NCBI GenBank assembly: GCA_964230645.1
Contig: CAXRHT010000001.1
Location: 64,001-128,000, forward strand
Length of the DNA: 64,000 nucleotides
Origin: Bdellovibrionales bacterium
GTDB lineage: Bacteria > Bdellovibrionota > Bdellovibrionia > Bdellovibrionales > JAGQZY01
Reading direction: 5' to 3'
Shown: piece by piece, positions 23,900 to 37,987 of the stretch
Layout of the letters: each line of letters opens with the position of its first letter
How positions within the stretch are numbered: the stretch's first letter is position 1
Translations under genes and position numbers: made by a program
The notes under the pieces: model-generated
Seen by the model: only the letters and a program-made list of their open reading frames with translations
Databases searched by the model: none
Told to the model about the DNA's origin: nothing

Positions 23900-24263
23900 C
23901 TGTCATTCTGAGGGCTCTGTCATTCTGAGCGATCTGTCATTCTGAGCGAAGCGAAGAATCTATCGCCACTGAATTCACGTTATCAATCAAAGCTCTCGGC
24001 AGTAGGTCCTTCGCTACGCTCAGGACGACAATTTGGAGTTATGGCAATTCTCTCCAATTATTATTCTGAGGGTTCTGTCATTCTGAGTGCTTTGTCATTC
24101 TGAGCGGAGCGAAGAATCTATCACCACTGAGTTTGCGTTTTTAACTGTAGTCCTCGGTAAAAGATTCTTCGCTACGCTCAGAATGACAGATCGCTCAGAA
24201 TGACAAAGCACTCAGAATGACAACGGGCTCAGAATAACAATGGGCTCAGAATAACAATGGGCT
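23900..24263. repeat. REP (GTCA/CGTC-type) doublets with 17-nt tandem stutters
   Basis: TGTCATTCTGAGCG(A/G)AGCGAAGAATCT at 23935 and 24093; inverted copies at 24004 and 24162 (both with 42-nt spacers); TGTCATTCTGAG repeated with period 17. Confidence 0.9.
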
Positions 24264-29625: not shown

Positions 29626-30870
29626 GTGAAATACGTTCTTGCTGTTCTACTTTTGCTCTCTCCCCTCTCCCTTTTCGCCGCCTACGGAAATTTCAATACG
29701 GTCTTAATCGGTGAGCAAGCTTCGGGAATGGGTGGGGCTTACACTGCTATGAGTGGAGACTCCTCCTCCTCAGGATTTTATAATCCCGCTTCCCTGGTAA
29801 AATTGAGTGGAACCGACATCTCAGCTTCGGCCACCCTCTTTAATAAATACGACACCACTTACGGTGAGGGACAAAACTTTCTAGACGCTGGGGAAAGAGT
29901 GAACCGCGGCTTTTTTAGAACTCTCCCCTCTGCAATAGGAAACGTTTACCGCTGGAAAAAGTGGGCCTTTGGATTCAGTATTGTGGTTCCAGACTACGAC
30001 TTTTTCTCTGGGCGCTTGGCTGATGGACCTAACAAACAATCCCATCTCAGCTACACCGACGAGAGCCTATGGAGCGGGATTGTAGGCTCCTATAAAGCGA
30101 GTCCCAATGAAAGTTTTGGAATCTCTCTTTACTATACGGCTCGAAGCCTCATTCGCTCCACCCTGGATCGAACCATTGTTTCGCCCGCCCGAGAAATCAT
30201 CACCACTGAAGAAAAAAGCATTAAGCATAACGGAATCGTCATGGTTCTAGGCTACCTTTGGGACATCAACCCCAAGTGGTCCTTTGGCACCTCTATTCGC
30301 CCTCCGGCTCTGAGTATTTCAGGGCAGGGTTCTTTTTATCAAAACGTCACCGACACGGCCAACCTGCCCAGTGAAAGCATTCAAATTAGAAACGCGAGCG
30401 CTAAAACCTATATTCCCCCGCGCTACTCTTTGGGCTTTGTTTATCGACCCACAGCAGACCTGACCCTTTCACTGGATGGTAAGTACTACCTCGGCCACTC
30501 CTATCAGGATATGGATGTCCCGCAGGCAGCCGATCAAATCAACCACGTCGACACATGGAACGCTTCCCTTGGGATGGAAATGAAGTTCAGAGACCCTAAC
30601 TTCAACTGGCGTCTTGGGGTCTTTACCAATAACTCTTCCATGGCCGAAATTCCTGAAAACCCCACTGAGCGCGTGGGAGAGCGTATGCAGCTTTACGGTT
30701 TTTCAACCAACGTTAATTTTTTAGTGTCCGAGCACTCCAGCTACACCCTAGGGGGCTTTTACTCGGGCGGAAATGGTAAAAGTGCCCAAATAACAGGAAA
30801 CCAACTCACCCGCCTTGATAAAACCCACCATATTTTTTCTCTTCTTATTTCCACCTCCTACCAGTTTTAG
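29626..30870 (+). CDS. FadL/OmpP1-like outer-membrane transporter
   Basis: Signal peptide; GMGGAYTA...YNPASL N-terminal motif; terminal YQF. Confidence 0.75.
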   Translation: MKYVLAVLLLLSPLSLFAAYGNFNTVLIGEQASGMGGAYTAMSGDSSSSGFYNPASLVKLSGTDISASATLFNKYDTTYGEGQNFLDAGERVNRGFFRTLPSAIGNVYRWKKWAFGFSIVVPDYDFFSGRLADGPNKQSHLSYTDESLWSGIVGSYKASPNESFGISLYYTARSLIRSTLDRTIVSPAREIITTEEKSIKHNGIVMVLGYLWDINPKWSFGTSIRPPALSISGQGSFYQNVTDTANLPSESIQIRNASAKTYIPPRYSLGFVYRPTADLTLSLDGKYYLGHSYQDMDVPQAADQINHVDTWNASLGMEMKFRDPNFNWRLGVFTNNSSMAEIPENPTERVGERMQLYGFSTNVNFLVSEHSSYTLGGFYSGGNGKSAQITGNQLTRLDKTHHIFSLLISTSYQF

Positions 30871-30980
30871 GCCCTTTAGAGGCGCCTCTCACTGCACCCC
30901 GAATTGACTTTTCTCCAGTCCTTTTAAATAAATGGGCCATCAATTCCTATCAAATCCGTTGAAGGTTAAGGAGAAAAGAA

Positions 30981-32129
30981 ATGAGCCAACCCGCTATTAC
31001 TACCTGGAGTGAAGACGAAAAAGCCTTTCGCATGGCGATCCGTGAGTTCGCCGAGTCCGTGATCAAACCCAAAGTTCACGAAATGGACAAGAACCAACAG
31101 ATGGACCCTGAAATTGTTCAGCAACTTTTTCAAATGGGACTTATGGGTATCGAGTCTCCTGAGAAATTTGGAGGAGCCGAGTCCTCTTTTACGATGGCTT
31201 GTATCGCCATTGAAGAATTAGGAAGAATTGATGGATCGGTTTCTGTTCTTTGTGACGTACAAAATACTCTTGTAACCAACGCTTTCCTTAATTACGCCAA
31301 TGAGGAAATGAAAGAAAAATATCTTCCAAAACTCGCGAGCGAATGGGTGGGAGCCTACGCACTCTCAGAGAGTGGTTCAGGTTCCGATGCCTTTGCTCTT
31401 GGTTTAAAAGCCGAGGATAAAGGAGACAAATACGTTCTTAATGGTCACAAACTTTGGATCACGAACGGAAAAGAAGCGAGCCTATTCTTGGTTTTCGCCA
31501 ACCTTAATCCCGAGGCTGGCTACAAAGGTATTACCGGCTTTATCGTTGAAAAAGATTTCCCTGGTTTTTCCGTGGGTAAAAAAGAAGACAAGCTTGGAAT
31601 CCGCGCAAGCTCCACTTGCGAACTTCTTTTCGAGAACTGTGAAGTTCCCAAAGGAAACATCATCGGTGAAGTGGGTAAAGGTTATAAAATTGCTATTGAA
31701 ACACTGAACGAGGGCCGCATTGGAATTGGGGCTCAAATGATCGGTATTGCACAAGGCGCTTACGAAGCCGCTTTAAACTACGTGCAAGGTCGTGAACAGT
31801 TTGGAAAACCATTAGCAAAGTTTCAAGGCATTCAATTTCAACTGGCTGAAATGAGAACCGAACTTGAGGCCGCGAAACTGATGGTTTACAACGCCGCAAG
31901 ACTCAAAGACTCCGGTGAAGATTTTATTAAAGAGGCCGCGATGGCCAAGCTCTTCTCTTCGCAAGCTGCAGAGAAAATTACCTCCCTTGCCATTGATCTC
32001 TTCGGCGGAAATGGTTTTACTACCGAGTACCCTGTCGAGAAATACTGGAGAGACGCCAAAATTGGCCAGATCTATGAAGGAACGACCAATATGCAAAAGC
32101 AAACCATCGCCAAGTTGGAGATGAGTTAA
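30981..32129 (+). CDS. Short/branched-chain acyl-CoA dehydrogenase
   Basis: YALSESGSGSDA, LNGHKLWITN, KLGIRASST, REQFGK and IGQIYEGT motifs. Confidence 0.95.
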   Translation: MSQPAITTWSEDEKAFRMAIREFAESVIKPKVHEMDKNQQMDPEIVQQLFQMGLMGIESPEKFGGAESSFTMACIAIEELGRIDGSVSVLCDVQNTLVTNAFLNYANEEMKEKYLPKLASEWVGAYALSESGSGSDAFALGLKAEDKGDKYVLNGHKLWITNGKEASLFLVFANLNPEAGYKGITGFIVEKDFPGFSVGKKEDKLGIRASSTCELLFENCEVPKGNIIGEVGKGYKIAIETLNEGRIGIGAQMIGIAQGAYEAALNYVQGREQFGKPLAKFQGIQFQLAEMRTELEAAKLMVYNAARLKDSGEDFIKEAAMAKLFSSQAAEKITSLAIDLFGGNGFTTEYPVEKYWRDAKIGQIYEGTTNMQKQTIAKLEMS

Positions 32130-32203: not shown

Positions 32204-32365
32204 AGGTCCTTCGGCTCCGCCTCAGGACGACAATCGAGAATTCTGTCATTCTGAACATTCTGTCTTTTTGTCATTCTGAACATTCTGGCTTTCTGTCATT
32301 CTGAATATTCTGTCTTTTTGTCATTCTGAGCGTAGCGAAGAATCTGTCGCCACTAAGTTTCCGTC
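32204..32365. repeat. REP cluster with 25-nt tandem stutter
   Basis: Inverted REP at 32204-32232; three 25-nt units TT(C/T)TGTCATTCTGAA(C/T)ATTCTG(T/G)CT leading into a full REP ending at 32345. Confidence 0.88.
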
Positions 32366-32627: not shown

Positions 32628-34421
32628 ATGAAAGCAAGACTAAAGTTATCCACCCTTGTCCGCATCAGTTTAACATTAGGGCTTCTCATCTTGGCCCTTC
32701 CCTCACAAGCCTTCGAGCAGTACTGGCAATGTTCCAGTCGGCAAGGCGGCGATTGGAGTTTTGGAAGAGCCCCTTCTATTTGTCTGGTCGACCATATGCA
32801 GACCCAAGATTTTGTGAAGTCTCAATATGATCCAATTCTTTTCAAAGACTCTCTTTCACGAACTAATGAAAGAAAAAGATATATCACTGAACTCAATGCG
32901 CTCGCAAAAGAAGTGGCGCGCTACTATTTACAAAAAAGAAAACCCGGAGTGAGCGAGGCAGAAATCGCCGCCTTCACGAAAGGTCTTCTCACTTTGATGC
33001 ATCAAGAAACCGTTTGGTCCCATTACCGTAGAAGCACTGACGGTCGAGTGCGCTATATGAGAGGTGATTTTGGTCACGGTCATGGACTTATGCAGGTCGA
33101 TGATCGCTCCCACCAAACCGCACTCCTGCAGGGAAAGGGTGCTGACCTAATTCATAATATGATGTACGGCCTCGATGTCTTTTATGGTGAGTGGCAAAGA
33201 GCTCCAAGCCAATACTGTGTGAATGGGCCCACGGATTATAAGAATCGTATTCGCTCGGCTTGGGCCGCTTACAACGGTGGACCCGGACGCATTTGTCGTT
33301 GGACAAGCACGACCGGAACCTACGCGCACCACGACAAGGACTTTTTAAGTAAGCTCAACAATCAGGTTTTTAAAAACTATGTTACCACTGAAAATAAAGA
33401 AACCGCTCTTAACGTGCAGTGTTTGAGCGAAGGCTCCCGTCCCTGTGCCAATACAGGCACCAGCACAAAACCCGTTCAACCAAAAGAGGGTCAGCTTTAT
33501 CAAGTGGGCTCTGGTTTTTACTGTCTCGTTAAAGGCGATGAACTTCAGTGTGTGGATCGTTTAAACGACGTTAATTGCCTTAACTTACGAGATAGCACCA
33601 ACTATGCCTCGCAAGGTAGCCTTTCTGAGGAACAGTTAAAAAACTTCTCCATTCGCCATTACGATCGCAACTCGATTTGTCAGGCTTCCGTGGATGGTCT
33701 AATTTCTATTAGCTCCGAAATTGAACTTCAAAAAAGTATTAACTTAAGAAGGACACCCGCTGGAGAGTTAGCCACGACGGTTCCTCAAGGCAGCAAACTT
33801 AAAATTCTTGATTTTGAAGTGACCAGCACGGCCGAGCAATTTCGGTACTACAAGCTTAATTACGAGGGAGTTGAAGGCTATGTTTACGCCGGTGATCTTT
33901 CCTCTCACCCTGAGTGGGCTGTGGAGGTAGAAGATATGACCTCTGGAAGCCTCTTAGCTAATATCGGTGAAAGTCTAGAAGTCAAAGCCCCTTACGGAAT
34001 CAATCAACGAGCCACTCCTAATGGACGCTATCTGCAGCGAATTCCTGTGGGCACTCAGGTGCAAGTTCTTGATCGTATCGTTAGAGGAAACGCGAACTAT
34101 CTTTATTATAAAGTCTCTTATAACAACTTAACCGGTTATATTTACTCGGGTTACTTAACCAATTTAGAGAGTGTTTCTTACTGGACCTCAAAACTTGATA
34201 ACAAGAAATCTCTGCTTTCGCTTTCTCAAAACCAAGCTTATCAGTACTTAAAAGAGTGCCCTGAGAGCTCTTGCTCCTACTCTGAGGCTTACCTTGAATC
34301 CGATAAAGAAAACGATCAAGTTGAAGTGGTGGAAGAAAAGTCCGGTTGGTCTCTTGTGGTTAACCGCACTAAAAATAAAAAGGGATGGATTCGCAACTCA
34401 CAACTTGAGCAAAATCACTAA
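32628..34421 (+). CDS. Secreted goose-type (GH23) lysozyme with C-terminal SH3-like domains
   Basis: HQET catalytic Glu, GDFGHGHGLMQVDDRSH and AAYNGGPG; INLRRTP/INQRATP..YYK..Y....GY.Y repeats and a terminal GWI SH3b. ATG at 32628. Confidence 0.82.
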   Translation: MKARLKLSTLVRISLTLGLLILALPSQAFEQYWQCSSRQGGDWSFGRAPSICLVDHMQTQDFVKSQYDPILFKDSLSRTNERKRYITELNALAKEVARYYLQKRKPGVSEAEIAAFTKGLLTLMHQETVWSHYRRSTDGRVRYMRGDFGHGHGLMQVDDRSHQTALLQGKGADLIHNMMYGLDVFYGEWQRAPSQYCVNGPTDYKNRIRSAWAAYNGGPGRICRWTSTTGTYAHHDKDFLSKLNNQVFKNYVTTENKETALNVQCLSEGSRPCANTGTSTKPVQPKEGQLYQVGSGFYCLVKGDELQCVDRLNDVNCLNLRDSTNYASQGSLSEEQLKNFSIRHYDRNSICQASVDGLISISSEIELQKSINLRRTPAGELATTVPQGSKLKILDFEVTSTAEQFRYYKLNYEGVEGYVYAGDLSSHPEWAVEVEDMTSGSLLANIGESLEVKAPYGINQRATPNGRYLQRIPVGTQVQVLDRIVRGNANYLYYKVSYNNLTGYIYSGYLTNLESVSYWTSKLDNKKSLLSLSQNQAYQYLKECPESSCSYSEAYLESDKENDQVEVVEEKSGWSLVVNRTKNKKGWIRNSQLEQNH

Positions 34422-34433
34422 GGAGTTTCGGTC

Positions 34434-35279
34434 ATGTTAAAAAAGGATCACTTTATTTACCTTGCCCCTGCCGTTCTATTTATGGCAGGTGCCGTCCTAA
34501 TGTTTTCCAATCAGGACCCAGCCTCTACAGCTGAAAATTATCAGCAAAGCCCTCAACCCAGAGTTGAAAGATCCGTCGCTTCCAAGAAAAAGGAAGCCGC
34601 TCAGAGCTCATCAAATGTCGTTAAAAAGAAGTCTGTTAATCAAAAGAAAACCTCAAAAGTTAGGCTCCCCGTTTTTGATCCTAATAAAAATCTCTCTGAT
34701 CAATTCTCCGATCTTAAGAAAATCGAGGAGTGTTACCAAAATGAGGGAAGCTGTGGTTTTCCCATGACCGATCCCAAGTCTGAGTTTTTCGCCATTGGTC
34801 AGCGTTTAAAAACAGACCTTTTAAAATTACAAAATGAAGTGATGGACCAACAAAGAAAAGATGAGCAGATCTCAGAGATGGCTCGTCATTTTCTAAAGAT
34901 TGCCGATGGCCATGTAAAAGAGGCGGCTCTTCATCTCATGGCCACCCAAGAACCCAGTGAAGACAACTTAGAAAGTCTTCTTAATGACATTATCGCCTAC
35001 CACGATGCTAAACTTATACAACAAGGAATGCTGGAGCTAAGGCGTTATCTTGGCAACAAACAAAACGAATCCAAAATTCACCAGGCTCTCGCGAATGCTA
35101 TGCGCACGGGTTCCCCTTTTGTAGCCGAACAAATCTCAAAAAATCTCAATGCTTTTATTAATGAAGACTCTTTACCTCTCTATATGAAGACGATGAGTCA
35201 ACTCTCTAAAGGAAGCCACACTCATAAAAACTTAAAAAACGCCATCAACGATTACCAAAGACTCCTACAGTCCGCGTAA
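34434..35279 (+). CDS. Membrane-anchored helical (HEAT-like) hypothetical protein, partner of the lysozyme gene
   Basis: AAGGAG RBS, start 12 nt after the lysozyme stop; N-terminal TM, basic linker and Cys pair. Confidence 0.7.
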   Translation: MLKKDHFIYLAPAVLFMAGAVLMFSNQDPASTAENYQQSPQPRVERSVASKKKEAAQSSSNVVKKKSVNQKKTSKVRLPVFDPNKNLSDQFSDLKKIEECYQNEGSCGFPMTDPKSEFFAIGQRLKTDLLKLQNEVMDQQRKDEQISEMARHFLKIADGHVKEAALHLMATQEPSEDNLESLLNDIIAYHDAKLIQQGMLELRRYLGNKQNESKIHQALANAMRTGSPFVAEQISKNLNAFINEDSLPLYMKTMSQLSKGSHTHKNLKNAINDYQRLLQSA

Positions 35280-37740: not shown

Positions 37741-37945
37741 AAACTAGTCGTCCAAAATCGACAACAGTAAAAGGGGGATCAAGTTTCGATTTCCCACCGA
37801 AGTCTAGTAGGTCAGAGAGCTGGCTCTTAACCAGGTTTTGAAGTGAAAGAAACATCGGAAAAATTGACTTCGTCTCTTGCAAATATTGGCCATTTTTTCA
37901 AATATTCCCTTGAGGGTCCTTCCCTGGAAAGATTCTTCGCTTCAC

Positions 37946-37987
37946 TCAGAATGACACTTGAACGGAAATCGGTTTATCGTTCAACAT
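37946..37987 (-). pseudogene. 5' remnant of the HI0933-family gene, truncated by a REP
   Basis: MLNDKPISV aligns without gaps to MVDSGPISI of 35360..36610; the stop codon falls inside the REP. Confidence 0.45.

Follow-up and report, generated by a model that had tools for sequence, protein, structure and literature searches.

A predicted g-type-clade lysozyme and its putatively membrane-anchored helical-repeat neighbor in Bdellovibrionota and Pseudomonadota: a candidate escort for type II export

How can a bacterium secrete a lysozyme without first turning it upon itself? A Gram-negative cell that exports such an enzyme must pass it through the compartment holding its own wall, and this question is raised by two adjacent genes in a 64,000-nucleotide stretch of a Bdellovibrionales genome (contig CAXRHT010000001.1, positions 64,001 to 128,000; here called the window, whose own numbering we use throughout). 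They form two same-strand open reading frames, at 32628-34421 (597 aa, ATG start; the enzyme gene, P0001) and at 34434-35279 (281 aa; the partner gene, P0002), and every feature of the pair given below lies on the + strand. A sequence-only reading of this DNA had taken the first gene for a secreted muramidase and the second, which it placed 12 nt downstream, as we confirm, for an inhibitor, chaperone or anchor. Taken together, our comparisons suggest, at a probability of roughly 0.48, that the partner is a tethered escort of a g-type-clade muramidase for type II export.

The sequence-only reading had called for a co-occurrence analysis, and we found the pair to be conserved as a unit in three genome sets (41 relatives, 401 genomes of the phylum Bdellovibrionota, and GTDB), which overlap and hold kin that are not independent. 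Among the 41 relatives 17 of 19 enzyme matches were strong, the two weak ones sitting in unrelated long SLT-type proteins, and a partner lay directly downstream at 17/17 strong matches, where all 17 partner matches of this set were found. In the phylum the partner adjoins 35 of 35 strong enzyme matches (33 by genome scan and 2 by local search) in 32 genomes, while among the GTDB matches listed (80 of 85 confirmed loci) 74 have a full partner, one has a partial partner and five end at a contig edge. Paralogous and back-to-back pairs show each enzyme retaining its own partner, and a distant subfamily B (hhalign E 4.9e-19 for the enzyme and 6.4e-10 for the partner) has its own partner type. Moreover, well-supported splits of the enzyme tree recur in the partner tree in 28 of 33 cases (shuffled mean 0.15), which shows joint inheritance and not binding. 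Short, lipoprotein-like enzyme forms without SH3b domains still keep the partner, and therefore the catalytic domain is likely to be the partner's client. Inter-protein mutual information over 84 paired rows (effective number of sequences, Neff, ~58) was uninformative, its top pairs being scattered with a control-free maximum z of 6.1. A metagenome scan in reverse, from the partner, confirmed 2 of 106 pattern matches, both downstream of an enzyme, and adds little because both are near-copies of a locus already in the set. Neither a second copy of the enzyme family nor a partner paralogue was found in the genome itself. In Bacteriovoracaceae, type A and type B pairs stand divergently and back to back between pyrD and sfsA, gene names that we assigned by reading the sequences (L142:2644-7652, L143, L144, L076, L092); the type B enzyme keeps the Glu and has a different hairpin (G-x-D-G-[TS]-D-x-G), and at one locus (L046:2570-6440) a very distant enzyme homologue of 789 aa is followed by two partner-like genes, one per type. 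Unannotated proteins with hydrophobic N-termini also stand in tandem beside some loci (L045:827-2782, L093:6710-9003, L096, L097); some of them share the secreted-plus-anchored layout, and those that were tested gave no NCBIfam match.

The partner itself matched no family in Pfam, NCBIfam or PHROG. Its model comprises a helix at residues 10-25, a low-confidence linker (~26-86) and a confident all-helical domain at 87-280, and its N-terminus reaches a hydropathy of 2.08 over 19 residues from residue 7, which predicts a transmembrane (TM) helix at ~7-25. A hydrophobic N-terminus is found in 83 of 92 partner homologues, and by a crude regular expression an A-x-A-like site follows it in 31/115 partners as opposed to 71/90 enzymes. 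Residues C100 and C107 are kept in 91/92 partner rows, which suggests that they form a disulfide and that the domain is extracytoplasmic. Fold searches returned generic ARM/HEAT solenoids, the best at Z 13.1 (root-mean-square deviation, rmsd, 4.8; 178 aligned), a value within the range that the tool deems common for repeats, and the Atlas gave unnamed clusters (0.91, 0.90) followed by HEAT clusters below 0.9, which we treat as a lead only. The known proteins Lif, CpaB, PliG, Ivy, Tsi3 and Bd3460 were not among the 50 VIA-align rows or the Foldseek rows listed for the partner, which does not exclude a relationship to them. The family is large: a search of 1.84 billion representatives with its profile finds 579 clusters (at 50% identity) with E<=0.001 and 366 with 1e-30. 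It evolves more quickly in sequence than the enzyme domain does (mean identity 26% versus 46%).

This anatomy resembles that of the membrane-bound chaperones of type II secretion systems (T2SS), such as Lif/LipB for lipase and CpaB for CpaA, which as described in PMC4713064 are encoded next to their secreted client, carry an N-terminal TM helix, often at residues 7-26, and have a periplasmic domain that serves that cognate enzyme. Both predicted marks of the class are found here, in the 12-nt gap and the single predicted N-terminal TM helix at ~7-25, as are, on the partner side by prediction, the periplasmic domain and the cognate enzyme. The differences are that our partner is a HEAT/ARM-like solenoid with a conserved Cys pair, and that its client would be a glycoside hydrolase, of which there is none in the 13 rows of Table 1 of that article. 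Additional support comes from the carriers: of nine gammaproteobacterial tails tested, four score at or above the curated cut-off for GlyGly-CTERM, and such a tail, with rhombosortase and type II secretion, accounts for the surface placement of VesB in Vibrio cholerae (PMC6219818, in the part consulted). The secretin GspD lies above cut-off in 6/6 carriers, i.e. our genome and 5/5 Pseudomonadota, and together the gene layout, the tails and GspD fit a Lif/CpaB-like class. In the mechanism that we propose, the enzyme would be exported by Sec, whereupon the solenoid, extended on its linker, would bind the cognate catalytic domain so that it folds or is held competent away from the producer's wall. 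Type II export would then free the enzyme, or lead to surface display in the GlyGly-CTERM and lipoprotein forms, and the enzyme would hydrolyze the peptidoglycan of foreign or dead cells, for feeding or antagonism. A role as cargo of a type VI secretion system was rejected for this genome, which is 99.6% complete and in which no VipB was found.

For the enzyme, a predicted Sec signal peptide spans residues 1-28 (32628..32711), with a hydrophobic 19-mer from residue 7 and an SQA end, a call that rests on sequence and hydropathy and not on a signal-peptide predictor. The catalytic domain follows at ~29-275 (32712..33452) and includes an N-terminal extension of ~80-100 aa; the AlphaFold 2 (AF2) model of residues 29-365 has a mean pLDDT (predicted local distance difference test) of 94.7. 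The motifs on which the sequence-only reading relied are all present: HQET at residues 125-128, the hairpin GDFGHGHGLMQVDDRSH at 146-162 (33063..33113) and AAYNGGPG at 213-220. A search with residues 25-290 gave 252 homologues among 731 candidates, and in an alignment of the query with 119 of these, E127 (33006..33008, the predicted general acid, aligned by hhalign to the glutamate of the g-type RE[ST] motif), D147, D158, D159, H162, N216, D236, C52, C197 and C223 are invariant (120/120 rows). The domain also has conserved cysteines that would pair as 35/52, 197/223 and 265/273.

The proposal of a goose-type lysozyme is supported in that the predicted lysozyme-superfamily fold is of the g-type clade and keeps all three acidic residues (E127, D147, D158). 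The Glu stands at the end of the central helix, in HQE[ST] here and not RES, and the two hairpin Asp are 11 residues apart, the same spacing as in the catalytic triads of mussel and cod g-type lysozymes (PMC3448621, in the part consulted). In phmmer against the PDB lysozyme g ranks first, weakly (E 0.007; g-type range 0.007-0.2), and goose D86 and D97 fall on D147 and D158; in a search with the family profile the five best of 16 PDB matches are g-type lysozymes (E 4e-4 to 3e-3). These two results together argue that the hairpin motif is more than chance. Foldseek likewise places g-type chains at ranks 1-7 (E 3e-3 to 8e-3, none reaching 0.001). Animal g-type lysozymes (GH23; 153L, 3MGW, 3GXK) share with our enzyme the lysozyme fold, the helix-end Glu, the GDxGxGxGLMQVDxRSH hairpin and an AYN-G motif. 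They differ in their Glu-to-Asp spacing (15 in mussel and 17 in cod against 20 here, as given in PMC3448621), and in that our enzyme begins with the long extension, has a Cys pattern of its own, lacks the TTxxDY motif, and adds a Cys domain, SH3b domains and an obligate neighbor gene; direct similarity is weak.

A connection is provided by phages. Of 372 pattern matches on viral contigs, 17 encode compact g-type-like relatives (loci L152-L168; RE[ST]...GDxGHGHG), mostly of 150-275 aa in contrast to our longer enzyme, whose hairpin they share in near-identical form. A profile of 13 of them aligns with the enzyme family by hhalign at E 5.8e-17, with HQE on RES/RET and the Glu in register, and with animal g-type lysozymes at E 2.5e-31 to 5e-29, as against 1.2e-4 for MltC. 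By these profiles the enzyme domain is connected to animal g-type lysozymes through its phage relatives, and its nearest relatives by profile are proteins from phages that match SLT, PG_binding_1 and endolysin models. No phage locus had a partner match at E<=1e-3 (0/17; one weak match, 0.0036), and no match to the catalytic domain occurred in 72,556 plasmid or 50,697 GenBank phage records. The compact phage proteins may bear on the origin of animal g-type lysozymes. Hydrolytic muramidase action is thus the quite likely activity of the enzyme, given the g-type link, the Asp-Asp spacing and a second catalytic acid that, according to PMC7511926, sets g-type enzymes apart from lytic transglycosylases. 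By sequence the enzyme does not belong to the DslA family of Bdellovibrio: DslA (Bd0314) is absent among sequence matches at E<=10, and membership was rejected since the hairpin here has Asp147/Asp158 and no conserved Glu, whereas catalysis in DslA relies on a Glu/Glu pair. The DslA gene is, besides, transcribed on its own (PMC7511926, in the part consulted). What the two share is the lysozyme superfamily and the phylum Bdellovibrionota (6ta9, Z 7.2, rmsd 4.3, 130 aligned).

Beyond the catalytic domain, what had been called a Cys-rich linker is instead predicted to be a small folded domain (~286-355, 33483..33692; C299, C308, C317, C351), its pLDDT block means lying mostly above 90; its fold match is weak at most (3l9a, Z 5.2, rmsd 3.0, 61 aligned) and it has no assigned family. 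The proposal of about three SH3-like modules agrees with Pfam, where SH3_3 (PF08239) matches three stretches at E 1.6e-17, alongside related SH3 models (~373-424, 464-510 and 560-594; 33744..34409), and these SH3b domains likely bind the cell wall. The C-terminal modules of homologues vary (L078:3896-6955; L093, L097, L104, L106), with Cys-rich repeats in Pleionea, Aliikangiella, Roseateles and Paucibacter and an extra Peptidase_C39_2 domain (E 5e-12) in a Reinekea homologue. A stand-alone protein of 215 aa (L055:2458-3105) aligns with the enzyme profile solely at the profile's C-terminal end, where the SH3 domains lie, and three genomes of genus g32 have similar matches.

Several observations weigh against the escort. 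GspD is common, and its presence in six of six carriers is therefore weak evidence; simple linkage of two genes can also make their trees match; and the partner resembles no solved chaperone, its matches being generic solenoids. VIA-align ties the superfamily at Z 7-9.4, and structure alone does not pick the g-type: GH124 cellulase scores Z 9.4 (rmsd 4.6, 163 aligned), gp144 Z 8.8, lytic transglycosylases Z 8.0-8.7, g-type lysozyme Z 8.1 (rmsd 3.9, 140 aligned) and the Ralstonia chitinase 3w6b Z 7.0. A place nearer the g-type than the lytic transglycosylases is favored by sequence profiles and Foldseek. Furthermore, six genomes of genus g88 hold the partner alone between pyrD and sfsA (L042-L044, L139-L141), and no enzyme was detected in these genomes with profile A5 (0/5, a call without positive control) or with profile A6 (0/4, the control genome matching). 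At the same site, three other g88 genomes have two full pairs. The six orphans are intact and under purifying selection, the ratio of nonsynonymous to synonymous substitution (dN/dS) being ~0.01-0.2 (dN against dS, for example, 0.015 against 0.35, and 0.20 against 1.8, with dS near saturation for distant pairs), and such retention without an enzyme is not expected of a strictly dedicated chaperone. Their identity to the paired partners of their genus is just 25-27%, and the otherwise conserved DGHV motif is missing from them. Such genes fit immunity kept without an enzyme, a chaperone whose client is encoded elsewhere, or some new function. Finally, in family f15 a related lipoprotein of ~203 aa occurs with no partner match in five genomes (0/5; 80-93% complete), and those genomes do have secretins. 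That family is one of small genomes, with lipoprotein relatives at L048:2794-3405, L056:759-1376 and L057, the last sharing an open frame with an upstream radical-SAM-like sequence, which may be read-through or an assembly artefact. Weaker or solo partner matches were seen in genomes G203, G216 and G264.

The orphans bring forward the account that the sequence-only reading had put in its title, in which the two genes are an effector/immunity pair: the enzyme would fold and export itself, and the partner would be purely an active-site inhibitor guarding the producer's wall, and also guarding against the enzymes of kin or competitors. We consider this account possible but tentative. The substrate of the enzyme is located in the producer's own periplasm, a strictly downstream cognate gene and orphan copies are both found, the pyrD-sfsA site offers two pairs in three genomes and an intact partner alone in six, and the partner diverges faster than its enzyme. 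To our knowledge, the lysozyme inhibitors PliG, Ivy, MliC and Tsi3 are soluble or lipoproteins and none is TM-tethered, which speaks against it, and the diverged orphans may have a new ligand. A precedent in the phylum is the ankyrin repeat protein Bd3460, which inhibits endopeptidases of B. bacteriovorus (PMC4686830, in the part consulted): Bd3459/Bd3460 likewise couple a wall-degrading enzyme with a helical repeat protein, though of another enzyme class and repeat type, while our partner has a predicted TM anchor and our pair occurs also outside predators. LipB, moreover, serves an unlinked lipase (Table 1 of PMC4713064), and thus orphans also fit a chaperone. Immunity is therefore one of two live readings, the partner's anatomy fitting T2SS chaperones at least equally, and the two are not exclusive, because an escort covering the cleft would do both.

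An escort might also serve a different enzyme, namely a lytic transglycosylase, a chitinase or another lysozyme-fold glycanase, which we judge improbable. Fold searches do tie several activities, including chitinase 3w6b (Z 7.0) and GH124 (Z 9.4), the Pfam SLT match is weak and below cut-off, a Reinekea homologue has a sub-threshold match to the chitin-binding CBM_14 (E 0.031), where g-type and phage relatives carry a TTxxDY motif near the C-terminus the enzyme has CRW...D236 in its place, and many carriers are presumably polymer degraders. SH3b domains, on the other side, typically belong to wall enzymes, the phage proteins with the matches named above rank as the nearest relatives by profile, and two invariant Asp sit on the g-type hairpin where lytic transglycosylases have no second catalytic acid (PMC7511926). 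It is very unlikely that the enzyme is a housekeeping remodeler kept in the producer's periplasm, with the partner as its anchor or activator for growth or division, for although lipobox-like ends in L014, L015 and L035 mark some of the short forms as lipoproteins and TM-anchored regulators of wall hydrolases are known, the pair is patchy even within the genus (4/12 relatives), its neighborhoods vary, it occurs across two phyla and the GlyGly-CTERM tails point outward.

Carriage of the pair argues on a wider scale. The 74 named paired loci comprise 39 from Bdellovibrionota and 35 from Pseudomonadota, interleaved on the enzyme tree; this is a quick tree with a few rows cut at the wrong offset, and we therefore make no claim as to who donated the pair to whom. 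Among named relatives the nearest are Bdellovibrionales. Only 32 of 401 genomes of the phylum and, by strong match, 4 of 12 relatives within the genus carry the pair, whereas carriers are common in Roseateles/Pelomonas, Paucimonas, Thalassotalea, Paraglaciecola, Bowmanella, Pleionea and Reinekea. B. bacteriovorus is not among the matches listed (80 of the 85 GTDB loci), and cultured carriers include Paucimonas lemoignei DSM 7445, Roseateles, Thalassotalea and Bdellovibrio sp. HCB337. The dedicated part in Bdellovibrio predation that was first proposed is thus not borne out: the enzyme may well serve predation in this organism, but judged from its distribution the pair is a mobile bacteriolytic tool of general use that does not belong to the core of the Bdellovibrio cycle.

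Within the locus, a Shine-Dalgarno-like AAGGAG (34420..34425) lies across the enzyme stop codon, an overlap that suggests translational coupling of enzyme and partner. By Pfam, an acyl-CoA dehydrogenase gene lies upstream and a convergent HI0933-like flavoprotein gene downstream, and scans for promoters and terminators stayed at chance level (4 versus 4.5 and 4 versus 3.9). The listing of sequencing runs has five entries and names no RNA holder. The interval 29626-32129 holds a FadL/TodX-like outer-membrane protein (E 2.4e-7, just under the Pfam cut-off region) and the acyl-CoA dehydrogenase, a neighborhood not seen at the related loci inspected. A 25-bp repeat resembling repetitive extragenic palindromes (REP) has five copies in the window (23936-23960, 24094-24118, 24163-24187, 32320-32344, 37931-37955), none in 100 shuffles, and 104 genome-wide allowing <=2 mismatches; several degenerate tandem partial copies (~32245-32320) precede the copy at 32320, just 5' of the enzyme gene.

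Precedents exist singly for g-type lysozymes, SH3b domains, type II chaperones and self-protection by a repeat protein (Bd3460), but neither their combination nor the partner family turned up in the libraries scanned or the literature searched, where we met no description of the enzyme-partner pair; subscription journals, supplements and the gene-cluster tables of PMC11656739, which could list it, lie outside that scope. At present we can only speculate that the partner represents a new inhibitor-escort class, a membrane-tethered HEAT-like solenoid that plugs the g-type active site until type II secretion and whose orphans defend against rivals, a doubtful proposal which, if true, would make the pair a widespread (579 clusters), mobile antibacterial effector-immunity module without contact-dependent injection. 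That bacteria and phages have a reservoir of g-type-like enzymes is relevant to the debate on where animal g-type lysozymes came from (PMC12855814, PMC11576321; neither main text mentions Bdellovibrio). Read as an escort, the pair would be a concrete solution to moving an exported lysozyme past the cell's own wall; it would bring glycoside hydrolases into the range of clients of type II chaperones, or else add a new lysozyme-inhibitor fold, and a family that numbers several hundred clusters and has no annotation would thereby gain its first role.

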